From IMG/VR virus record IMGVR_UViG_3300046777_001511, positions 4,602 through 68,601 of that record: 64,000 nucleotides of DNA. One strand, written 5' to 3'. The stretch comes from a virus. The first letter of the stretch is position 1. Each line of letters begins with the position of its first letter. The position numbers were made by a program, and so were the translations under genes. Below, piece after piece: positions 2,903-59,926 of the stretch. The notes beneath the pieces were generated by a model, which saw only the letters and a list, made by a program, of their open reading frames with translations, was not told where the DNA came from and made no database searches.

Positions 2903-3865
2903 ATGGCACCAAGAAAAAAAGCAGACGTTATTGTTTCACAAAGTGAAGTTACGTCATTCGAGAACACTAAGCAATTGTTTATTGAGTTAGCAGATCAGGT
3001 TACTCAGATTAAAGTTACCGACACAACTTCATTAGCTATTGCTAATCAGAAAATGTCAAACGTTAACAATCACATTAAAGAGATTGAGGCTAAGCGTGTA
3101 GAGCAAAAAGCTCCATTCCTAGAAGGCGCTAAGAAAGTTGACGAAGTTGCTAAGGAATTAAAGTCTTTATTAGAACCTGCATTAAAGCATCTTAAAACAG
3201 AAGTTGCTAACTGGGAAACAGAACGTATTCGTAAAGAGAATGAGTTAAAGCAAAAGGCATTAGAAGTTGCACGTAAAACTGAAGAGGAAGCTGCTGCAAT
3301 TGCTAACGATAAAAGAATAGTAGATTACATTGCTCAAGTTAAGAACTGGTTAGAGAAAGGATTAACAACTTGCACTACAGTTGAACATGGCAATCAAATG
3401 TTATCTTCTATGCAAGGTTTACAGCCTGCTGCTTTAATGGGTAAATACTCTCAGGAATATTCTGCTTTAATTGAAATGTACAAAACATTGTTCAGCACAA
3501 AAGTTGGTGAATTAACTGGTAACATTGCTCCGGGAACAACCGATAAACATATTGATGTTTTAGGTAACCAATTAAACAACCACATTGAATCTATTAAACA
3601 AGAAGTTGAATCTAAACAAGCAGAAGTTGCTCAAGTTGAAACTCAAATTCAACAAGAGATGAATAGCTTACAGGAAGATAAAGCTACTAATGTTAGATAC
3701 AATTGGAAGTTTGAGGTACTTAGTGTTAAAGAAGTTCCTATGGAGTGGTTAACAGTTGACGAAGCTAAAGTAAAAGAGTGGATAAAAGAAAACAAAGAAA
3801 ACTTAAAAGAAGGATACTACAAGGGTATTAATTTCTTTAAAGAAATGACAGTAGTAACAAGATAA
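2903..3865 (+). CDS. Coiled-coil phage protein (probable true start ATG 2903)
   Basis: Long coiled coil with C-terminal WKFEV..VP.EWL.VDE.KV motif common in phage recombination-region proteins. Confidence 0.6.
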   Translation: MAPRKKADVIVSQSEVTSFENTKQLFIELADQVTQIKVTDTTSLAIANQKMSNVNNHIKEIEAKRVEQKAPFLEGAKKVDEVAKELKSLLEPALKHLKTEVANWETERIRKENELKQKALEVARKTEEEAAAIANDKRIVDYIAQVKNWLEKGLTTCTTVEHGNQMLSSMQGLQPAALMGKYSQEYSALIEMYKTLFSTKVGELTGNIAPGTTDKHIDVLGNQLNNHIESIKQEVESKQAEVAQVETQIQQEMNSLQEDKATNVRYNWKFEVLSVKEVPMEWLTVDEAKVKEWIKENKENLKEGYYKGINFFKEMTVVTR

Positions 3866-4158
3866 TGGCAAAAGATAAACAAGTTCCTGAAAAACTTATC
3901 AGAATGTTCCCTCAGTACACACGAAAAGAATTATACTTTATGTTGTATCCTTTTTGGACGGGAGTTTCTGATAGGTTTAAAAGGAAAAAGTCTGACGTAT
4001 CAGCCGTATCAATAACGGTTAAAGGACTTGGAAGGTTTGAGTTTAAAAGCAATGCTAAAATGAGAAAATCAGCCTTATTGTTTAGAAAGCGTTACATTAA
4101 AAAGATTACAAAGTTTCAGAGAAAAAAACAATTACAATCAGATAAATTAATTTACTAA
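3865..4158 (+). CDS. Basic HU/IHF-like DNA-binding protein
   Basis: SITVKGLGRFEFK resembles the HU arm motif; K/R-rich. Confidence 0.45.
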   Translation: MAKDKQVPEKLIRMFPQYTRKELYFMLYPFWTGVSDRFKRKKSDVSAVSITVKGLGRFEFKSNAKMRKSALLFRKRYIKKITKFQRKKQLQSDKLIY

Positions 4159-7810: not shown

Positions 7811-8291
7811 TCACTCTATAAGAGTTGATTTAGATTTATCACTGCAACAATACGTTGTAATGGATTTTATGAGTTATTGTTGGGATAAAAGATTAAATCC
7901 TGAAAGCAATTCTATAGAGTTAATAGCTATTGAATTTGATAAAATAATCCCTTACATTTCTTTATTGAGAGAAAAGGGATTACTTTCAGAAAATCAACCA
8001 ACAGATAAGTGGTTAAGTTGTTTTGTAAAAACTAAAAAGAAAAAATCTAAAAATGAGTTCATACCGCCAACGCAAGAAGATGTCATTTCATATTTCAAAG
8101 AAAAAGGGTATTCAGATATTCAAGCCAAAAAAGCGTTTGAATATTATTCTGTGGCTGATTGGAAAGATCGTAACGGCGATAAAGTCGTTAATTGGAAACA
8201 AAAAATGATTGCCAATTGGATGAAAGAAGAACACAAAGTAGTTAATCAGTCTCAATCAGTTTCATTTGAACCAAAAGTTTATAAAAGATGA
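7779..8291 (+). CDS. Replication initiator-like protein
   Basis: C-terminal FIPPT.EDV..YF...F.YY...W...NWK domain; ATGA-coupled to DnaB. Confidence 0.6.
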   Translation: MTKITGLTLINHSIRVDLDLSLQQYVVMDFMSYCWDKRLNPESNSIELIAIEFDKIIPYISLLREKGLLSENQPTDKWLSCFVKTKKKKSKNEFIPPTQEDVISYFKEKGYSDIQAKKAFEYYSVADWKDRNGDKVVNWKQKMIANWMKEEHKVVNQSQSVSFEPKVYKR

Positions 8292-9643
8292 ATGCTCTTC
8301 CTCAAGCAATAGAAATTGAAGCCTTAGTTTTAGGGCAAATACTTTACTTTCCTAAAGCTATGGAAGAAGTGGTTAATGTTTTAACTCCAGAACATTTTCA
8401 TCACCCTTCTCATGCTTTGGTTTATAAATGCTGCAAATGGCTTTACGATACTAAAAAGCCAATAGAAAGCATAACAGTCATTCAGGCACTAAAAGAAAAT
8501 AATTACCTCGAAAAAATAGGAGGAGCTTTTTTTGTAGTAAGTCTAACAAACGATGTGGTTTCTTACGATAGCATTGATAAATACACTGAAATTCTCAGCG
8601 AGAAAAAGATGCTAAGGGAAGTTATAAATGTAGCTTCTACAACACTGGCAGAGGCTTATAATCCAAAATGTGTAGCATCAGAATTAGTTGACAAATACGA
8701 AAAGAATTTAACCGAAATAACCACTAAGTTAACAGGAGATAATCTTTCAAGTTCAAAAGATATTCATAATAAAATGATTGAAAGAAATGCCACGATACTA
8801 AATAATCAAGGCAAACTAGGAGTTACTTCAGGATTTTCGGGCATTGATTCTATTACTTCTGGATGGCAAGAGCCTGATTTAATTATATTGGCAGCACGTC
8901 CTGCAATGGGAAAATCTTCATTAGCAGCTCAGTTAGTTTCTAATCCTGCAATAATACAAGGAAAGTCAGTTGCTTTATTTACTCTTGAAATGTCAACTAT
9001 GCAGTTTTATGCTAGAATGCAATCCCAACAAAGCGGAATAGCTGTAGAAAAGATATTAAGAACAGGATTAAATGAATATGAATTAACTCAATTAAATACA
9101 TCATGCGAACCTCTTAAAAACTCCCCTATTTACATTGATGATACTCCGGGTATATCTATATTCGATTTAAGAAATAAATGCCGTAAATTAAAAAGAGATA
9201 AGAATTTAGGGCTAATTGTTATTGATTACTTGCAATTAGTTACCGTTCCTGATCACAAAGGCAATAGAGAGCAAGAAATAGGGATGATTTCACGCTCATT
9301 AAAGAACTTAGCAAAAGAATTAAACATTCCAATTATAGCGCTTTCCCAATTAAGCAGAGCAGTTGAATCTAGGGCAGACAAAAGACCTTTGTTATCTGAC
9401 CTGAGAGAATCAGGATCAATAGAAATGGATGCAGATATTGTTTCTTTCTTATATCGCCCCGAATATTATGGTATCATGCAGGATGACAGAGGAAACCCAA
9501 CATCAGGAATGGCTATGCTAATTATAGCTAAACACAGGAACGGGCCATTGGCAGATATCATGTTATCATTCGAGCACGATAAAACTAAATTTACTGATTA
9601 TCAGCACAATAGCATGTATGGTAAAAAAAATATTACTTTTTAA
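8288..9643 (+). CDS. dnaB: Replicative DNA helicase DnaB
   Basis: AARPAMGKS, IDYLQL, LSQLSR, DLRESGSIEMDAD, IAKHRNG. Confidence 0.97.
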   Translation: MNALPQAIEIEALVLGQILYFPKAMEEVVNVLTPEHFHHPSHALVYKCCKWLYDTKKPIESITVIQALKENNYLEKIGGAFFVVSLTNDVVSYDSIDKYTEILSEKKMLREVINVASTTLAEAYNPKCVASELVDKYEKNLTEITTKLTGDNLSSSKDIHNKMIERNATILNNQGKLGVTSGFSGIDSITSGWQEPDLIILAARPAMGKSSLAAQLVSNPAIIQGKSVALFTLEMSTMQFYARMQSQQSGIAVEKILRTGLNEYELTQLNTSCEPLKNSPIYIDDTPGISIFDLRNKCRKLKRDKNLGLIVIDYLQLVTVPDHKGNREQEIGMISRSLKNLAKELNIPIIALSQLSRAVESRADKRPLLSDLRESGSIEMDADIVSFLYRPEYYGIMQDDRGNPTSGMAMLIIAKHRNGPLADIMLSFEHDKTKFTDYQHNSMYGKKNITF

Positions 9644-9654
9644 TTAAAAATTTG

Positions 9655-9662
9655 TAACTTTG
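9655..9662 (+). promoter_or_regulatory. Bacteroidetes -7 promoter element
   Basis: TAACTTTG in the intergenic gap upstream of 9702. Confidence 0.5.
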
Positions 9663-9701
9663 TACAAATTCTTACGTTAAACATTATAAAAACTATCAAA
9701 C

Positions 9702-10211
9702 ATGAAAAAATTAATCACAACAGCTTTATTGTTAGCAAGGCTTACAGTTAGCGCACAAACTCCACTAGAAGAAAGATACGATGTATTTGACAGCATCTCT
9801 AGTGATGGAATTGATTTCATAGCAAAATTCGAGGGAGCATTTGTAAATTCTGAAAACAGAAATGATACAATTGTTGTTTACCCTTACATTTCTTACTATG
9901 AGTTTGAAGGATTTAAAATCGAAGGCATTTGGCTTCATTTTTTGAATAAATTTGAGAAAGTAAAAAATGTTGATTTTATTTTTGAAAAAGAAACAATAGC
10001 TTTACATGCTTGCAAATCTCAGGATCAAACTAAATTTGATAAAAAATATATCATATCAGCAAACAGCAAAGTTAGTCCTGATGCTTTTTTTACTCCTCTA
10101 TATATGATTAACTTTAACGGAAAATCATATATTCCTATCAACAATGGCGATGTGTATTTTATATACATGCTTAATGTAATTGAAAATTTAAAGTCTAACT
10201 GGTTAAAATAA
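9702..10211 (+). CDS. Secreted/periplasmic hypothetical protein
   Basis: Signal peptide MKKLITTALLL...VSA|Q, typical of Bacteroidetes. Confidence 0.6.
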   Translation: MKKLITTALLLARLTVSAQTPLEERYDVFDSISSDGIDFIAKFEGAFVNSENRNDTIVVYPYISYYEFEGFKIEGIWLHFLNKFEKVKNVDFIFEKETIALHACKSQDQTKFDKKYIISANSKVSPDAFFTPLYMINFNGKSYIPINNGDVYFIYMLNVIENLKSNWLK

Positions 10212-10228
10212 TTAAAACAAAAACTATC

Positions 10229-10567
10229 ATGAAAACAGCAATTGAACTACAAGCCATGATTGATGCTTTAAGAATCAATATGGAAACAGAAGAAGGCAGA
10301 AAGATTGAATCTAACATTTGCCCTGAATGGAGCTTTAGATTTATGCCTGACAACAAAATTATCGTAGAATGTAAATATGTTTCTAAACATAAAGACATTA
10401 AGATTTTTTATGGCGACAATGATGAGCCGGGATGGAGAGAAGAAGTTCAGCATAGCGCTATGGCATTTGAATTTGAATCAGAAGATTTAGATACTTTTGT
10501 AGAGGAGGTTAGTAACATATTGTTTGATTTATTATTTATAAATTTAGGTTATGGGGAAATTATTTAG
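10229..10567 (+). CDS. Acidic hypothetical protein
   Basis: ORF preceded by the AAAACTATCA motif. Confidence 0.6.
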   Translation: MKTAIELQAMIDALRINMETEEGRKIESNICPEWSFRFMPDNKIIVECKYVSKHKDIKIFYGDNDEPGWREEVQHSAMAFEFESEDLDTFVEEVSNILFDLLFINLGYGEII

Positions 10568-10673
10568 TTTGTCAAGATCCATTGATTGGTGGACAAAAAA
10601 ATCAGAAAACAGCGTTAGACAATCTTTTAACATAGAATTGTACATGAAGATTATTAAAATGAGAGGCTTATAA
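10551..10673 (+). CDS. Small hypothetical protein (40 aa) ending at the first TAAC junction
   Basis: MGKLFSLSRSIDWW...MRGL*; its TAA stop is the TAA of TAAC 10671-10674. Confidence 0.55.
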   Translation: MGKLFSLSRSIDWWTKKSENSVRQSFNIELYMKIIKMRGL

Positions 10674-10796
10674 CGGTAGGCGGCTAAACGAGGTGGCTGA
10701 TTGACACCTTGAAACTTAATTAAAATAACGAAATTATGAATACAGAAAAAACTTCATTAGAAAAAGAAAGTCAGACATCTTGTTTAGGTGCTGTTA
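10671..10796 (+). repeat. attC-like hairpin J1 (126 bp)
   Basis: TAAC, 5 nt, arm 10680-10702 pairing with arm 10769-10791, T, GTTA. Confidence 0.75.
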
Positions 10797-10975
10797 TAGG
10801 CTGTAAATTTTTTCTCATAATGGCTTTACAAAGAGGCTATAATGCAGATATACCACACAGACTATATTTAACAGAAGAAGATGCAAAAAAAGTCGCAGAT
10901 GAACACAATAGGAATTACGATGTAAAATGGGTTGTAAAAGAGGTGAAGTTCGATGAAAAAATTTATTGCCTATAA
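10736..10975 (+). CDS. Cassette 1 hypothetical protein
   Basis: Starts in the J1 loop; its stop is the TAA of TAAC 10973. Confidence 0.6.
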   Translation: MNTEKTSLEKESQTSCLGAVIGCKFFLIMALQRGYNADIPHRLYLTEEDAKKVADEHNRNYDVKWVVKEVKFDEKIYCL

Positions 10976-11076
10976 CGTTTTGCAGCTTTGAGCCGTTTAA
11001 ACGAATATTAATTTAAAACAATAATTAACGAATATGAATAACAAGGAAATAGAAAATGGCTTCAAAGGTGCTGTTA
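10973..11076 (+). repeat. attC-like hairpin J2 (104 bp)
   Basis: TAAC, 5 nt, GCAGCTTTGAGCCGTTT pairing with AAATGGCTTCAAAGGTGC, T, GTTA. Confidence 0.75.
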
Positions 11077-11246
11077 GCGGTAGTTTGAGGGAACAATCTC
11101 TTGAATGGTTTTTCGCAAAAAGTGAAATTGAGAAACACGATTTAAAAGACAAACACTTTCCAAACACACCAATACAGCATAGTAGGCAATGGGGATTTCA
11201 TTTCACTTTTGGTCAAATTGAGGAAATGTATGTTAAAGAACGGTAG
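11034..11246 (+). CDS. Cassette 2 hypothetical protein
   Basis: Starts in the J2 loop and reads GAVSG across GTTA. Confidence 0.6.
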   Translation: MNNKEIENGFKGAVSGSLREQSLEWFFAKSEIEKHDLKDKHFPNTPIQHSRQWGFHFTFGQIEEMYVKER

Positions 11247-11257
11247 CAAATTACCGC

Positions 11258-11344
11258 TAACGGATGGGTATTTGCGAAGTTGCCCTTGCAGATACTTCAA
11301 ATTAAGCACAAATGTTGATGGGCAATTTTGCAAATACCTTGTTA
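11258..11344 (+). repeat. attC-like hairpin J3 (87 bp)
   Basis: TAAC, 5 nt, GGTATTTGCGAAGTTGCCC pairing with GGGCAATTTTGCAAATACC, TT, GTTA. Confidence 0.8.
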
Positions 11345-11407
11345 CCTGCTGGTGCGGTTAATTAGGACAAAACTTAAATACGGAGAACTAAAAAAACTTT
11401 TATTAAA

Positions 11408-12268
11408 ATGAGCAAAGGAAAAAAAGAAATATTGTTTGGAGATTGTTTGGACTTGATGAAAACCATTAATGATAATAGCATTGATTTGGTTTTTACATCA
11501 CCGCCTTACGCTGAACGCAGAAAAGCAACATACGGAGGCACAAATGAGAATGAATATGTTGATTGGTTTTTACCGATTGGAGCAGAGATAAAACGCATTT
11601 TGAAACCTACTGGCAGTTTCTTTTTAAACATAAAGCCACATACCAACAACGGAGAAAGAAGCCTGTATGTTTATGATTTGATTTGCCAACTGAAAAGAGA
11701 AACGGGCTTTATGTTTGTTGAAGAATATTGTTGGACTAAAAATGCTTTTCCAGGCAGTTTGAAAGGAAGGTTTAAAAATGCGTTTGAGCCGATATACCAC
11801 TTTACAAAAAACTCACCGAATAAAATCACATTTAACCCTGTGGCTTGCGGAACACCGATAAAGGAAGAAAGTATTGCAAGGACTTACAGAAAGCAATGTG
11901 GAGCACCTAAAAACGGAAGCGGAATGACTGGAATGAATACCACTAACATACGGAACTTAGGACTTGCAAGACCTTCAAATGTGATAAATGTGAATAACGT
12001 AAGCAACCAATTTTCAGATAAGCAACTACACCCTGCTACATTTCCCGAAGGATTGGTTGAGTTTTTTGTAAAATCATTTACGAATGAAGGCGATATTGTG
12101 TTGGACCCGTTTGGAGGAAGCGGAACTGTTGCTTTAACGTGTGTAAAAACCAAAAGACAATTTATACTTATGGAAAAACAAGAACAATATTTTGAACTCA
12201 TTAAAAAGCGGGTGGGAGATTTTAATAAAAGTTTTTTAACGGAACTTCCATTTGAAAACGAAATGTAG
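11408..12268 (+). CDS. Beta-class DNA amino-methyltransferase (N4-C/N6-A), cassette 3
   Basis: FTSPPY catalytic motif before HPATFP and the DPFGGSGT SAM motif; SPPY favours m4C. Confidence 0.92.
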   Translation: MSKGKKEILFGDCLDLMKTINDNSIDLVFTSPPYAERRKATYGGTNENEYVDWFLPIGAEIKRILKPTGSFFLNIKPHTNNGERSLYVYDLICQLKRETGFMFVEEYCWTKNAFPGSLKGRFKNAFEPIYHFTKNSPNKITFNPVACGTPIKEESIARTYRKQCGAPKNGSGMTGMNTTNIRNLGLARPSNVINVNNVSNQFSDKQLHPATFPEGLVEFFVKSFTNEGDIVLDPFGGSGTVALTCVKTKRQFILMEKQEQYFELIKKRVGDFNKSFLTELPFENEM

Positions 12269-12330
12269 CACTTGCAGGTAACTTACTTCTTTGCGCTACT
12301 TTATAGCGCCTTATATACATAAATTACATT

Positions 12331-12900
12331 ATGAGCAAAAAACAATCAATATCCGAAGAAACATTATTAAAGATGGGACTTCATCGTAATGCTGATGGTT
12401 CCTACTCAAAAGCTAAAACAACATTGCAACCTCGCGAAAAAGAACAAGTAGTAGTTAAAAATAATGAGTTAAGAAAAATAACTATTACTTTGTTCGGCGA
12501 GCCTATGGCAAAACAATCTGTTAGATCCACAAAGTCAGGACACTTTTTTCAGCCTAAAAAATATGTTGACAAAGAAAAAGATTATAGGAATCAAATAGCT
12601 AAACAGCTACCAAAAGATTTTGTAATGTTTACAGAAGAAGCTAGGATACTTAAATTGCATTTTATTTATCCTCCATTAAAAGCTTTCCATAAAATAAAAG
12701 GACGAATGGAGCAAATAAGAGATGGAATATTGTTTCCAAAAACAACTAAGCCAGATGTATGTGATAACTTAAAAAAATTAGTTTTAGATTCCATGAGTAA
12801 ATTAGTTTATTCTGACGATAGCATAATTTGGGCTGAAGATAATGTTAGGAAATTTTACGGAACAGGAGGATGTACCATAATTGAAATAGAAGGAAAATGA
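12331..12900 (+). CDS. rusA: RusA-family Holliday junction resolvase
   Basis: GEPMAKQSVR, KPDVCDNLKK.VLD, DDS motifs. Confidence 0.85.
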   Translation: MSKKQSISEETLLKMGLHRNADGSYSKAKTTLQPREKEQVVVKNNELRKITITLFGEPMAKQSVRSTKSGHFFQPKKYVDKEKDYRNQIAKQLPKDFVMFTEEARILKLHFIYPPLKAFHKIKGRMEQIRDGILFPKTTKPDVCDNLKKLVLDSMSKLVYSDDSIIWAEDNVRKFYGTGGCTIIEIEGK

Positions 12901-13577
12901 ATAAAGAGTGGTTAGACTTTATAAATGCTGAAATACAAAAAGACTACATGGTTAGTCTTAAATCTTTTATTGATTTCGAAAGACAATCTAATGTAGTTTA
13001 TCCTGCGGCAAACATTACTTTTAATCACATGAATTTTTGTCCATACGATAAACTTAAAGTAGTCATTATAGGAAATGCTCCATTTTGCGAAAACGTCAAC
13101 GATGGTCTTGCTTTTTCTGCCTATGGACACATTCATCCAGAAGATAACAAAAACATCATATACGAGGCTTTTAGGGATTATTTTAAGGCATGGAATAATA
13201 CTAGCGAAATTAAAAACAAACTATACCCTACAGGACAATTAACTGAATGGGCTAAACAAGGAGTTTTACTGATTAATTCAATTTATACTTGCACCGATAA
13301 AGATAGATTTTCTCACAAGAACAAAGGATGGGAAACATTTAACGAAAACCTTATTGAAAAATTAAATGATTATCACTTACCATTAGTATTTATTAATAAG
13401 TGTACTATTAAAGATTATACTAATAAAATTAATCCAAGAAAACATTTAATTATTAATGGCAATGATGCTAATTGGTGCACTAAAGCTAATGAGTTTATTC
13501 GCAATAGGAAAGTACCAATAGACCAACAGCATCATCAGTTAAAGATTAATTGGATGACAAAGCCTTTAAATGTTTAA
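12897..13577 (+). CDS. Uracil-DNA glycosylase family 1 homolog, catalytic motifs degenerate
   Basis: KVVIIGNAPF (vs GQDPY), GLAFS, WAKQGVLLIN, SH..KGWETF; HPSPLS absent. Confidence 0.8.
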   Translation: MNKEWLDFINAEIQKDYMVSLKSFIDFERQSNVVYPAANITFNHMNFCPYDKLKVVIIGNAPFCENVNDGLAFSAYGHIHPEDNKNIIYEAFRDYFKAWNNTSEIKNKLYPTGQLTEWAKQGVLLINSIYTCTDKDRFSHKNKGWETFNENLIEKLNDYHLPLVFINKCTIKDYTNKINPRKHLIINGNDANWCTKANEFIRNRKVPIDQQHHQLKINWMTKPLNV

Positions 13578-13992
13578 GCCCAATTATAACATCTGTGTAA
13601 ATTGCAATCAGCAGCGATTAATCGTTGTCAAGAAGGGATTGTGTAAATTCTGCAATCAATCTAAAAAAGGTAAAACAAAAGTTAAAATAAAACCTAAAAA
13701 GAAATCCGGTGAACTAAATATGTTTAAAGAATTATCTGAAGAAAAACAAAACAATGTTTGTCAATGCTGCAAAACTTTAATCCCTAGTTTATCACCAATT
13801 AATTTCAGTCACGTTCTCAGTAAAGGAGCTTATCCTTGTTATAGACTAGATAAAAGAAACATATTTATTGTTTGTGATAATTGTCATCATCAGTGGGAAT
13901 TTGGAGACAGGAATCAGCCTAAGTTTGCTTTTAAAAGAGACGTGGCTCAAATGCTTAAAGAGGAGTACTATAAAACAAAAAGCGGAAAATAA
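13570..13992 (+). CDS. Zn-finger HNH/NinG-like nuclease
   Basis: CxxC pairs, SH.LSKG, RN...VCDNCH. Confidence 0.7.
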   Translation: MFKPNYNICVNCNQQRLIVVKKGLCKFCNQSKKGKTKVKIKPKKKSGELNMFKELSEEKQNNVCQCCKTLIPSLSPINFSHVLSKGAYPCYRLDKRNIFIVCDNCHHQWEFGDRNQPKFAFKRDVAQMLKEEYYKTKSGK

Positions 13993-56967: not shown

Positions 56968-57100
56968 CTTTATTTTGGTTTTTATTGTTTACTTGTCTGC
57001 AAAATGTATCCTTCTCCATTCTCTCTAGCCTCTCCCGATCAGCCCTAATGCGAAGCTTTATTGATTCTGCTTCTATCCACCATTGTATTCTTTCTATATC

Positions 57101-57226
57101 CATAACCACAAATGTAATAAATTATTTTTAATTATACAAAAATACAAATTATTTAGTTGATAATCAAGTCAATTAATTTTTTAACATTTGTATATTTGTA
57201 CAAATAGAATTTATTTATTATATTTG
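57101..57226. promoter_or_regulatory. Divergent Bacteroidetes promoters
   Basis: - strand TACATTTG (57109-57116) with TTTG 20 nt upstream; + strand TTTG(57195) and TATATTTG(57219-57226). Confidence 0.65.
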
Positions 57227-57242
57227 CTGAAAATTAATTACT

Positions 57243-57437
57243 ATGGAAAAAGAATTTAAAGTAGGAGATATTCCTTACAAGATTGTCGGGGACGATATTT
57301 ACAGACTTCCCTATGAGAAAAATCACAAGTGCTTTAGCCTTAAAAAGCTGTGCCCTACATGGCAATTAAAGTACAGACTGAATGGTCAAGTATATTCAAT
57401 GGAGCAAATAGAAGCTATATTCCTTAAAGATAAATAA
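57243..57437 (+). CDS. Hypothetical protein
   Basis: First ORF after the + promoter. Confidence 0.55.
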   Translation: MEKEFKVGDIPYKIVGDDIYRLPYEKNHKCFSLKKLCPTWQLKYRLNGQVYSMEQIEAIFLKDK

Positions 57438-57439
57438 AC

Positions 57440-57706
57440 ATGAAAACTAAAAAAGAAATAGAACAGTTGGCGTTTTTAGAATACCCAAGACTTATAAATG
57501 ACCCTTACAACCCAATGGAAGATGGTAATACCTATGAAAGACAAATTTGGATTGATGGCTATACTCAATGCCAAGAAGATATGAAGGAATACATTTTCGA
57601 AGTAGCATTTCAATTCCATAGATTAGGAAAGTATTATGGCAACATAAGCGATACCCATTTTACTGATATTTATGAAGAAACAATTAAATCAATAAATAAA
57701 CCATGA
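57440..57706 (+). CDS. Small phage protein, paralog of 62821..63066
   Basis: Shares IDGYTQCQED..YIFEVAFQFHRLGKYYGN.SDTHF. Confidence 0.7.
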   Translation: MKTKKEIEQLAFLEYPRLINDPYNPMEDGNTYERQIWIDGYTQCQEDMKEYIFEVAFQFHRLGKYYGNISDTHFTDIYEETIKSINKP

Positions 57707-57951
57707 AAACACACAAGTACAAATTAACAATCTACAATGGCCGCGTGAAAGTCTACGTTGACAACTATGTAATGTTCACATTCAACCAAATAGACTTCAA
57801 AGGCTACTACTCCTACAAAGACGATACCGACCTGTACGGAATAGACATATACCTCATGAACGAAAAAGGCGGTGCAACAACAATGGAAATCTATTTCAAA
57901 ACTAAACAACATTGGCTAAATATCCTCAAACTGCTAGATACCCACTTGTAA
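57703..57951 (+). CDS. Hypothetical protein
   Basis: ATGA overlap with the upstream gene. Confidence 0.6.
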   Translation: MKTHKYKLTIYNGRVKVYVDNYVMFTFNQIDFKGYYSYKDDTDLYGIDIYLMNEKGGATTMEIYFKTKQHWLNILKLLDTHL

Positions 57952-58249
57952 CGCTCCCCTTTCTTTTTATTGTATGTAAGAAAGTCTGAGGGATGCTTCT
58001 TACTCTTCATAGTTATACGCATAGAAGTTTGGGGGATGCTATATACCCCTCTACAAAAATCGGGGGGTAGGTCTGCCTATACGGGGGGCTTATTTTATTT
58101 GCCTACTATCTGCCTGCCTTTTTTGTTGACCGACTAAATTACATGATCCATCTATAAAATAGGATTGAATAAATTTATTTTTAGCTATGTAAAAATATTT
58201 TTTTGTAGGTAAGCCAATGAGAAAAAAAATAATAAATTGCTGCCTTACT

Positions 58250-58450
58250 TGTTTAGAATCATTCTAAATAATATTATTACTATGTGCCGCCGCTTATTTA
58301 GAATTAGACTAAATAAAAATATTGAAATTAACAAAACTTGGCATGATATTATTTTGTTTAGAATGTATCTAAATTATATAATATTAATACTTTGGCATGA
58401 TATTATTTTATATAGACTTATTCTAAATAAAAACTTTGGCACGATTTTAT
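58250..58450. repeat. Cluster of TTTAGA-N5-(T/A)CTAAA palindromes and TTGGCAYGAT direct repeats
   Basis: Four palindromes and three TTGGCAYGAT copies in non-coding DNA. Confidence 0.7.
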
Positions 58451-58570
58451 TTAAAAGTTTACATTTATATATAAATAATGAATAATAAATAAATTTATAT
58501 GTTAATGTAAAATTAATTAGCCTGATAATCAGCTAGTTACATAATTTATTGTAAAAAAGTACAAAAAAAA

Positions 58571-58602
58571 TTTGCATTTTGCCCGTTCTTGTTGTATATT
58601 TG
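58571..58602 (+). promoter_or_regulatory. Early promoter
   Basis: TTTG-N20-TATATTTG. Confidence 0.7.
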
Positions 58603-58643
58603 TATCAGATAATTAAACAATAACAATTTAAAAACTATCAGCC

Positions 58644-59045
58644 ATGAGAACAACAATCGAAAACAAAACTAGAGTAGAATTATTAAACACTATTTTAGAC
58701 GCTGCAAAAGATGGAAGATTGACAGACATTCCAGTTAGCGAAATTCACCACGAAGTTTTTAATACTGACTATTTTATTATAGGAAGTTACAAGGCTGAAC
58801 AATGGTTAATTGATAACTACGGAGTTTTTAACGCTATTGAAACTATTCAGGAATACGAGCAAATGAACTTTGGCGAAGTTAACACGAAGCTAGGCGAAGC
58901 GGAGCACGTTTGTAACATGTTAGTTTACATTTTAGGCGAAGAGATATTAAACGACTTAAAATTTATTAGCGACAATTGGAACGAAGATACAACACCGGAA
59001 ATGATTGAAGAACTTATAAAAGAAATCGAAGAAGAATTAAACTAA
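58644..59045 (+). CDS. Acidic Ocr-like DNA-mimic/antirestriction candidate
   Basis: Very D/E-rich 133 aa; IHHEVFNTDY.II pattern; first gene after the early promoter. Confidence 0.55.
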   Translation: MRTTIENKTRVELLNTILDAAKDGRLTDIPVSEIHHEVFNTDYFIIGSYKAEQWLIDNYGVFNAIETIQEYEQMNFGEVNTKLGEAEHVCNMLVYILGEEILNDLKFISDNWNEDTTPEMIEELIKEIEEELN

Positions 59046-59072
59046 TTAACTAACCAATAAAAACTATCAGCC

Positions 59073-59417
59073 ATGAAAAGTTATAAAATAACAACACAAC
59101 ACGACGTTTATATTGATACATACGAAAACGGCGAAGGTAAACACGTAAATTTTTATACCTTAACAAGTGAATGTAAAGCCCTAAATTATCAGGATGCAAT
59201 TATAAACCATTTTAATAATACAGTTTTTTTACCTTTTGATTTTCAGCACGCCGATATTGACAAAGAACAAAATTTAATTTTTTACTCTAATTTAGTAGAC
59301 GCGGAAAACTTAGAGCCATACAAGGAAGATATTGAAAAATGGAAAAAAGGAGAAAAAGAACTTTACTGCAATCAATCAGTAATAAGTATTGAAATAGTAG
59401 AAAAATTAATTTTTTAA
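59073..59417 (+). CDS. Early hypothetical protein
   Basis: Preceded by AAAACTATCAGCC. Confidence 0.65.
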   Translation: MKSYKITTQHDVYIDTYENGEGKHVNFYTLTSECKALNYQDAIINHFNNTVFLPFDFQHADIDKEQNLIFYSNLVDAENLEPYKEDIEKWKKGEKELYCNQSVISIEIVEKLIF

Positions 59418-59438
59418 TTAACCTTTAAAACTATCAAA

Positions 59439-59597
59439 ATGAATATTTATAAAATAACACTAAAAAGTGACAGCGGAAAAATTAACATTATAACCACTGC
59501 AATAGATTCCGACACAGCAAAATTTAAAGTTTGTGAGGCGGAAGGCTGCCCGCCCTTCGCAATAGTAAGATGCAAACTAATTAAAAAAATTTATTAA
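59439..59597 (+). CDS. Small early protein (52 aa, not in ORF track)
   Basis: Preceded by AAAACTATCA; open frame MNIYKITLKSD...AEGCP. Confidence 0.6.
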   Translation: MNIYKITLKSDSGKINIITTAIDSDTAKFKVCEAEGCPPFAIVRCKLIKKIY

Positions 59598-59616
59598 TCT
59601 ATTAAAATTTAAAGTT

Positions 59617-59820
59617 ATGTTAAGTTATATAAGCCACCCAGAAACGGACGAAAGAAAAGCCCATACAGATATTATGCTAAATAATGAGTATATAGGTTAT
59701 TATATCATATTAGATGAAGTTTTAACGGCTTTTATTGAAATTGAGCGCGAAATGTACGCCGGAGAATTTCAAAACATTGAACAGTTAGAAATAAAAATAA
59801 ATGAAATATTAATTTATTAA
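59617..59820 (+). CDS. Early hypothetical protein
   Basis: ORF in the early cluster. Confidence 0.55.
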   Translation: MLSYISHPETDERKAHTDIMLNNEYIGYYIILDEVLTAFIEIEREMYAGEFQNIEQLEIKINEILIY

Positions 59821-59926
59821 AAACTTTACAAAAACATATAAATTTTGAAAATAAATAAAATTTATATAATTTATATAAATAATTGAAATTTTCAAAACTT
59901 TACAAAATCGTATAAATAATAAAATC

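Follow-up and report, generated by a model that had tools for sequence, protein, structure and literature searches.

What are the three imperfect hairpins, here called J1, J2 and J3, that lie among small genes in the viral DNA of IMG/VR record IMGVR_UViG_3300046777_001511, and why do they fold better on one strand than on the other? The window (the whole stretch of DNA that was analysed, 64,000 nucleotides) comprises bases 4602-68601 of this 68.6-kb record, whose completeness is 90% according to CheckV, and positions below are those of the window unless a contig is named. An initial annotation, made from the letters alone, had proposed that selection acts on a single-stranded + strand structure that is read by a structure-specific enzyme, and that this differs from the attC recombination sites of integrons, in which the bottom strand is the substrate. 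Our answer is that J1-J3 are probably attC-type sites that bound three mobile cassettes, and that together they would form an integron-like array without a recombinase of its own, or CALIN (cluster of attC sites lacking an integrase); the three sites lie within 700 nt, in a record in which we found no tyrosine recombinase (below). This call is made from sequence comparison and with a covariance model of our own.

The hairpins J1-J3 and their family

The three sites are the following:
10671-10796, + strand: J1, putative attC-type hairpin of 126 nt (TAAC, a 5-nt spacer, an imperfect stem of ~20 bp, a loop of ~72 nt that contains the ATG of ORF1, a single T, and GTTA)
10973-11076, + strand: J2, putative attC-type hairpin of 104 nt, a shortened and diverged member of the family with the ATG of ORF2 in its loop
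11258-11344, + strand: J3, putative attC-type hairpin of 87 nt with a 19-bp stem, 2 G.T pairs and a short loop

Their geometry can be read directly in the sequence, as the initial annotation had it: TAAC (at 10671, 10973 and 11258) is followed by the spacers GGTAG, GTTTT and GGATG and then by the stem, and on the 3' side the stem is followed by T, T and TT and then by GTTA (at 10793, 11073 and 11341) in J1, J2 and J3, respectively. J1 and J2 have the common ending AGGTGCTGTTA and both carry a G.G mismatch at stem position 4, where J3 has A-T. Arm-by-arm enumeration of the stems gave 3 G.T pairs in the 20 bp of J1 (4 if 22 pairs are counted, the number first reported), 1 in J2 and 2 in J3, and A.C mispairs are absent from all three. 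When both strands were folded, the + strand was the more stable at all three sites and with both parameter sets, which bears out the preference that had been predicted: the + and - strand values are -15.2 and -5.7 (J1), -11.9 and -7.3 (J2) and -19.3 and -16.2 kcal/mol (J3) with DNA parameters, and -37.65 and -22.9, -21.45 and -14.5, and -34.7 and -28.3 kcal/mol, respectively, with RNA parameters. Against shuffled sequences the + strand z values of J1, J2 and J3 are -2.5, -1.3 and -4.4 (DNA) and -4.9, -1.6 and -4.5 (RNA), so J1 and J3 are significant and J2 by itself is not.

Are these hairpins peculiar to this phage? A search with the ORF1 product (10736-10975) found 16 viral loci, most of which match only its first 21-30 residues, and these loci share a DNA module of ~126 nt that runs from TAAC to GTTA, with flanks that diverge exactly at both motifs; J1 itself has near-identical copies in many viral contigs, with unrelated flanks. 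The two module ends, used as a search pattern, found at least 90 stretches in viral contigs and at least 120 in bacterial genome assemblies (the labels viral and bacterial are those of the source collections), and among the 80 bacterial titles listed 71 are Bacteroidota and 3 are relatives of Ignavibacteria. In an alignment of 25 modules (J1-J3 and 22 others; 128 columns) J1-J3 align as one family, with TAAC, G5 and TGTTA invariant, and across the 25 modules A2, A3, C4 and the terminal G, T and T are invariant; 191 of 208 bacterial modules begin with TAAC. J3 belongs to a subfamily that also contains L012:3811-3930 and L032:1491-1608. The family consensus has 5 nt after TAAC and 1-2 nt before GTTA, as in J1-J3, is without a bulged base, and by reading of the alignment has G.G at stem position 4 in most of the 25 modules. 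The view that the hairpins share geometry and not sequence thus holds in its first half only, since J1-J3 are homologous.

The structure that we scored consists of TAAC paired with GTTA plus an inner stem of 19 pairs, and the controls were the same columns with their partners slid by 1-3 columns and 500 shuffles. Standard pairs fill 95% of the pair cells of the 25 modules (33-49% with slid partners), compensatory double changes occur at 17 of the 19 inner-stem pairs, and none of the 500 shuffles matched the observed covariation score. A covariance model built from the 25 modules (J1-J3 themselves among them) scores J1 at 128.8, J2 at 71 and J3 at 54.2 bits in the 64-kb window, with E values from 7e-24 to 1e-8; only these three score better than the next match, which has E = 0.21. 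A first nhmmer profile had missed J2 and J3, both of which the covariance model recovered.

These results bear on the simplest alternative, that the hairpins are chance inverted repeats or ordinary intrinsic terminators. J2 taken alone would fit it (z values above), as would a bare count of GTTA...TAAC pairs with complementary ends, which in the whole window gives 8, inside the shuffle range of 2-11. We nevertheless regard the idea as refuted, because the covariance model finds J1-J3 and nothing else in 64 kb, the family covaries and has hundreds of homologous copies outside the window, and a scan of 10400-12500 for terminator-like sites found none. The hairpin is also no catalogued RNA: Rfam has no family corresponding to the ~126-nt hairpin, and its best matches in 10400-12500 reached 21 and 18.8 bits, where the gathering scores are 134 and 65.3.

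The strand preference extends to the larger set. Across 130 distinct viral modules the mispairs number 254 G.T and 28 A.C, one G.T pair is invariant (129 of 129 modules), and stability favours the + strand in 117 of the 130 modules when DNA parameters are used, and in just 93 of 130 when RNA parameters are. Strand bias and covariation thus both persist beyond J1-J3, and covariation, G.T excess and stability together argue for the proposed selection on a single-stranded + strand structure, which is plausibly read by a structure-specific enzyme.

Does this set the hairpins apart from attC? In integrons, the recombinogenic bottom strand of attC carries 5'-AAC-3' and is cut between A and C, G:T mispairs per folded strand average 1.24 on the bottom and 0.39 on the top strand, and the sites are 57-141 nt long with an unpaired central spacer of 5-6 nt in each arm (Nivina et al. 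2016, PMC5027507). Like attC, J1-J3 are imperfect hairpins within this size range with 5' AAC and 3' GTT conserved on the strand that folds, and the family has a structure conserved by covariation and an excess of G:T pairs on that same strand (PMC5027507). By its 5' AAC and its G.T excess, the + strand of the window corresponds to the bottom strand of attC, and the bacterial arrays described below, whose genes lie on the opposite strand, agree with this assignment. The + strand bias is therefore explained by known attC biology, and the contrast in strand use that had been drawn with classical attC falls away; it was suggested by a real fact, namely that in the phage it is the bottom strand that carries the genes, the opposite of what is canonical for cassettes.

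One further feature of the fold was noted by eye. In J1 (10690-10712) and in the aligned modules (columns ~21-42) the distal 5' arm also pairs locally with sequence ~10 nt downstream to give a small hairpin, which excludes the long stem and varies in step across family members, and which may be an alternative fold.

Cassettes and their boundaries

J1-J3 are located among the small early genes. The + strand between 301 and 13992 carries early and replication genes and the - strand carries long structural genes; landmarks are a DnaB helicase gene (8288-9643), an N6_N4 DNA methyltransferase gene (11408-12268) and RusA (12331-12900). The array lies between a conserved 40-aa gene and RusA, and its other parts are as follows:
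10551-10673, + strand: conserved 40-aa phage gene (ORF list), the left border of the array; the TAA of its stop is the TAA of the first TAAC
10736-10975, + strand: ORF1, the cassette 1 gene, 79 aa, without a family match; its start codon lies in the J1 loop, and the TAA of the J2 TAAC serves as its stop
10793-10814, + strand: left terminal inverted repeat of cassette 1, beginning with GTTA; 22 nt, 91% complementary to 10955-10976 (inverted repeat I11)
10955-10976, + strand: right terminal inverted repeat of cassette 1, ending in TAAC (I11)
11034-11246, + strand: ORF2, the cassette 2 gene, 70 aa, no family match (ORF list and family searches)
11073-11088, + strand: left terminal inverted repeat of cassette 2, 14 of 16 positions complementary to 11246-11261
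11246-11261, + strand: right terminal inverted repeat of cassette 2, ending in TAAC and pairing with 11073-11088
11341-11354, + strand: left terminal inverted repeat of cassette 3; the 16 nt from 11341 are complementary at 13 of 16 positions to the 16 nt that end at 12282
11408-12268, + strand: cassette 3 gene, a DNA methyltransferase (N6_N4_Mtase; Pfam PF01555, E 1.5e-45; phrog_67) with its own start codon
12269-12282, + strand: right terminal inverted repeat of cassette 3, ending in the TAAC at 12279-12282 that closes the array

Since hairpins alternate with segments whose ends are complementary, the region is a chain in which hairpin and segment repeat up to the TAAC at 12279-12282, and the cassettes, each a hairpin with the gene to its right, are 10674-10975, 10976-11260 and 11261-12281.

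An integron cassette is complementary, at its far end, to the inner end of the attC that belongs to it, since crossover takes place in the conserved triplet. Do the ends found here behave in this way across the family? We compared consecutive modules only, leaving no choice of partner, by taking the 10 nt to the right of module n and the 10 nt to the left of module n+1. Of these pairs, 34 of the 77 viral and 33 of the 62 bacterial ones showed complementarity of at least 8 of 10; in the control, the two flanks of one and the same module, this level was seen in 0 of 154 viral and 0 of 124 bacterial cases. The bare count of GTTA...TAAC pairs given above is not what carries the signal in the window; it lies in the fact that three such pairs tile exactly with the hairpins. 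The complementary ends and the homology breaks at AAC or TAAC described next suggest that these are boundaries of the integron kind, with end complementarity that spans 14-22 nt here, unlike the ~7 nt of integron cassettes.

Two properties of the end pairing were observed in addition. The complementarity has its maximum at 9 of 10 and 13 of 14 and is imperfect save in L020 (14 of 14), and in the examples that were read a recurrent mismatch places a left-end G opposite a right-end T, a further G.T on the + strand.

Contigs that share single cassettes with the window show where the units begin and end. Viral contig L005 shares solely 10672-10976 with it (99.3% identity; J1 and ORF1, from AAC to the next TAAC) and has nothing else in common with 16 kb of the window; at the left junction the sequence is ...G|AAC, and the shared unit of 305 nt has no module next to it. 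We considered describing it as a solo insertion and dropped this, as a second module lies ~1.8 kb downstream; only the absence of an adjoining module is claimed. Similarly, L024 and L025 share solely 11249-12283 (99.5-99.7%; J3 and the methyltransferase gene to its TAAC), with different neighbours beyond, and three viral contigs encode relatives of the ORF2 product (90, 75 and 61% identity). Four other metagenomes, from four studies, have contigs that break at 10675, 10973, 11258, 11344 and 12279 or 12282: contigs from two of these other collections begin to match exactly at 10973 and are unlike the window before it, one matches 11258-11344 (J3) alone and is unlike it on both sides, and contigs from three break at 12279 or 12282. 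On the left, contigs from two other metagenomes match the flank up to 10675 and 10685 and diverge beyond. In the related phage L002-L004 (RusA 83% identical) homology runs to 9758 and resumes at 12279; L002 has the breakpoint and no hairpin module at this locus, that is, no alternative hairpin cassette.

Several observations concern the surroundings of the array. L002 has a 46-aa ORF at the position of the 40-aa gene, the likeness of the two being judged by eye from their translations. In place of the array L002 carries a 124-aa ORF with an HEMMH motif (3584-3958), which ends in TAAC at the position of the last TAAC of the window and may represent either a former cassette now without its site or the original occupant of the insertion site. 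A 226-aa ORF at 12898-13569, with a weak match to the uracil-DNA-glycosylase superfamily, is absent from L002-L004, in which homology jumps from 12898 to 13569; this makes it the second gene-sized difference near the array. For the 112-aa ORF at 10229-10567 no related viral locus was found, and blastn of window positions 9600-13600 against GenBank phages gave no match. Far from the array, 57100-59900 is very AT-rich, with many long inverted or overlapping repeats (I1, I3-I5, I8, I10, I13, I16 and I21); it lies between the structural genes and small + strand ORFs and is possibly an origin or a regulatory region.

Gene orientation and start codons in the loop

On which strand do the cassettes carry their genes? 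In the window all three cassette genes are on the + strand, the one that forms the hairpin and corresponds to the attC bottom strand. In the family at large, the longer open frame of the cassette body is on the + strand in 127 of 148 viral cassettes, whereas in 98 of 106 bacterial cassettes, whose modules are also read as +, the - strand has it. A start codon within the module opens a frame that runs to the cassette end in 81 of 148 viral and only 3 of 106 bacterial cassettes. Among 99 small viral bodies, 40 have the frame set by GTT fully open, and the other five frames are so in 1-11 bodies; an in-frame ATG is present in only 22 of 198 bacterial modules. At the 16 loci found with ORF1 (~12 of them distinct) the module ATG in every case opens a frame of 71-101 codons into unrelated sequence, so that otherwise unrelated ORFs of 71-101 aa share an in-frame leader of 20 aa. 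In the window the starts of ORF1 and ORF2 are in the J1 and J2 loops, and the methyltransferase start lies downstream of J3.

Because the hairpin strand is the sense strand here, the early mRNA would contain the same hairpin, whose A-rich loop would hold the start codon of ORF1 or ORF2, and an added translational role for the hairpin in mRNA, in which the loop presents the start codon, is likely on this sequence evidence. Two observations made by eye concern J3 and its relatives: the ATG in the J3 loop opens a frame of 17 codons only (11312-11365), which stops before the methyltransferase start at 11408, unlike the loop ATG of the related module L012:3811-3930, which reads on into its cassette.

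Could the hairpins then be purely RNA elements of the early transcript, serving start-codon presentation, translation coupling or processing, in cassettes that are shuffled by homologous recombination only? The loop ATGs of ORF1 and ORF2, the module-started frames and the open GTT frames of the viral cassettes (81 of 148 and 40 of 99, above), the z values of about -4.5 to -4.9 for J1 and J3 folded as RNA and the conserved G.U pairs would all fit such elements. So would contigs L021 and L026, in which the bodies of cassettes 2 and 3 stand behind different hairpins and homology starts inside the 3' arm (in L021, 11066-11263 is 99.5% identical). These two are not explained by a single crossover at AA|C and require exchange inside the sites as well, for which homologous recombination is the simplest route. 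The bacterial modules speak otherwise: they are antisense to the genes in 98 of 106 cassettes and rarely have an in-frame ATG, so a role in sense RNA cannot be what conserves the family. Homologous exchange moreover leaves unexplained why cassette ends are complementary and the flanks of single modules are not, and it does not account for L005, whose 305-nt unit has no adjoining module and which resembles 16 kb of the window nowhere else. A further point is the link of the family to a tyrosine recombinase (below). We consider this explanation improbable.

A related comparison is with T4-type phages, in which promoter-early stem-loop modules undergo homologous recombination and carry an early promoter. 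Like these, the present hairpins are short conserved modules that separate small and variable early genes, and their region is not the same in relatives; unlike them, they have complementary cassette ends, boundaries fixed at AAC, a link to a tyrosine recombinase and no promoter signal above chance (5 matches, against 7.5 +/- 3.2 expected, in a scan for the sigma-70 consensus only, outside which the promoters of Bacteroidota lie).

Tyrosine recombinases, related systems and meaning

If J1-J3 are attC-type sites, where is the enzyme that acts on them? The bacterial members of the family stand in co-oriented arrays, with up to 7 modules per 8 kb and 10-23 per genome (five genomes), and in four of the five genomes the best match to the integron integrase model, an IntI-like tyrosine recombinase, lies 0.8-3.2 kb past the last module of an array (G001:C35, G003:C3, G004:C10 and G005:C57); the same genomes have further Xer-like genes elsewhere. 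Homologues of the array-linked recombinase occur in 19 of the 120 listed bacterial 8-kb loci (17 at 37% identity or more) and in 5 of 112 viral loci. The family is thus linked to arrays with Xer/IntI-like recombinases in Bacteroidota, and the bacterial layout is that of a sedentary chromosomal integron, i.e., an array of similar attC sites, gene-sized cassettes and a tyrosine recombinase at one end. The likeness to chromosomal integrons includes the similarity of sites within arrays, the complementary cassette ends and the co-orientation of arrays near the recombinase (PMC5027507). Two viral contigs encode compact tyrosine recombinases, of 264 and 267 aa (L006 2767-3561 and L233 4370-5173), directly after the last cassette and on the same strand as the cassette genes, and the catalytic parts of these proteins are 51% identical to a bacterial array-linked recombinase. 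With the recombinase beside the cassettes, some phages appear to hold the complete system.

A number of points weigh against the identification of J1-J3 as attC-type sites, among them four given above: the nonsignificance of J2 alone, the weaker strand preference with RNA parameters, the breaks inside the sites in L021 and L026, and the presence of the phage genes on the bottom strand. In integrons the cassette genes are on the top strand, and the reverse orientation has reportedly never been observed (PMC5027507). The spacer of the family, 5 nt in one arm and 1-2 nt in the other, is unlike the 5-6 unpaired bases that attC has in each arm (PMC5027507), and clear extrahelical bases are lacking; a conserved G.G mismatch and an invariant G.T pair are found instead. 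A Pfam PF00589 search and tblastn revealed no tyrosine recombinase in the 68.6-kb phage record. The array-linked bacterial recombinases score 208 and 191 bits with the integron integrase profile TIGR02249 (cut-off 265), which they match in two stretches that leave ~55 profile positions (about 180-237) unmatched. These positions we take to be the IntI-specific insertion or additional domain. Their best family is the XerA-like NF040815, which they match end to end at 213 and 208 bits, below the cut-off of 220, and the nearest solved structures are of XerA type (PDB 4a8e and 5hxy), ahead of VchIntIA. In G005:C57, finally, the orientation of the recombinase relative to the array differs from that in the other three genomes. 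Neither in the window genome nor in the bacterial arrays, then, does an integrase with the IntI-specific domain appear to stand beside the array as it does in a complete integron. The array-linked enzymes resemble XerA-type recombinases (4a8e, 5hxy; NF040815) in that they match end to end, the phage versions being compact (264-267 aa), and are unlike Xer enzymes at dif in that they sit at the ends of hairpin arrays and fall just below the NF040815 cut-off.

With these points in view we still prefer the attC-type reading, in a version with three unusual traits by which it departs from integrons: phage genes on the bottom strand, often started in the loop; an asymmetric spacer; and a recombinase that falls below the curated integrase cut-off and is apparently without the IntI-specific insertion. 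We picture its working as follows: The + strand, once single-stranded, would fold into the hairpin, in which TAAC paired with GTTA would be the R box, separated from the inner stem by an internal loop of 5 nt and 1 nt. A tyrosine recombinase supplied in trans (the array-linked enzyme of the host, or one from a co-infecting element or other phage) would cut within the 5' AAC and exchange the cut strand with another site, and in an excised circle the cassette's own ends would lengthen the hairpin by 14-22 bp. Three cassettes would in this way have been inserted between the conserved 40-aa gene and RusA. Since no such enzyme was found in the phage, a host array-linked recombinase or that of another phage would have to supply the activity. 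For the chemistry (a single-strand substrate, a cut between A and C and replicative resolution) and for the acting enzyme, this is what we infer from the features described above.

Single-strand transposition was weighed as well, with the hairpins as ends or targets of HUH/Y1 transposases (IS200/IS605, REP-RAYT), since such systems read strand-specific hairpins near a short motif. Strand-specific imperfect hairpins, a fixed flanking tetranucleotide and many copies per genome would all suit it. The Y1 transposase family PF01797 has 0 matches in the phage record, though, and the arrays are co-oriented and gene-sized and end beside a tyrosine recombinase. In IS200/IS605 each end carries its own hairpin, and here both arms of a single hairpin lie between successive cassettes. 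We therefore think this explanation very improbable.

How much of this is new? Qi et al. 2023 (PMC9892861) described phage attC clusters without integrase, 17 arrays found with standard attC tools, in which cassettes carry orphan methyltransferases including N6_N4_Mtase and in which one host is Polaribacter, a flavobacterium. The present array resembles those phage CALINs in its virulent-type phage, its two or more attC sites, its lack of an integrase and its N6_N4_Mtase cassette (PMC9892861), and the methyltransferase cassette fits the orphan methyltransferases published there. As both phage CALINs (PMC9892861) and the G:T bias of the attC bottom strand (PMC5027507) are published, the explanation of our finding is known biology. 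The present array differs from that account, as far as the available text goes, in the 126-nt family, the start codon within the site and the systematic inversion of the genes, none of which is described there, although divergent attC directions in one phage are mentioned (PMC9892861). Our literature search found no description of this hairpin family of Bacteroidota and phages, with its asymmetric spacer (the supplementary phage-array lists of Qi et al. 2023 being outside the comparison), of its link to a recombinase without the IntI insertion, or of inverted phage cassettes or start codons inside attC loops.

A broader idea we put forward tentatively, with confidence a little short of even: phages of Bacteroidota may keep a version of the integron of their own, in which the hairpin serves as a translation-start module (ATG in the loop, a leader of ~20 aa encoded in the 3' arm, and a cassette end at the next TAA) and in which small early and anti-restriction genes are shuffled by compact XerA-like recombinases without the IntI insertion, some of them phage-encoded, as a pool distinct from the oppositely oriented arrays of the hosts.

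Integrons have been held to be rare in Bacteroidetes, with one complete integron, in Salinibacter, in the IntegronFinder 2.0 paper (PMC9024848); here one hairpin family bounds hundreds of cassettes in Bacteroidota chromosomes and phages, with gene orientation relative to the site opposite in phages and hosts. If the proposed mechanism is true, the known range of integron-like recombination would widen, and the family would offer a natural test of whether and how the IntI insertion governs the choice of strand and the geometry of the site. It would also open a large and easily delimited pool of small phage early genes, likely to include counter-defence functions such as the orphan methyltransferase found here.

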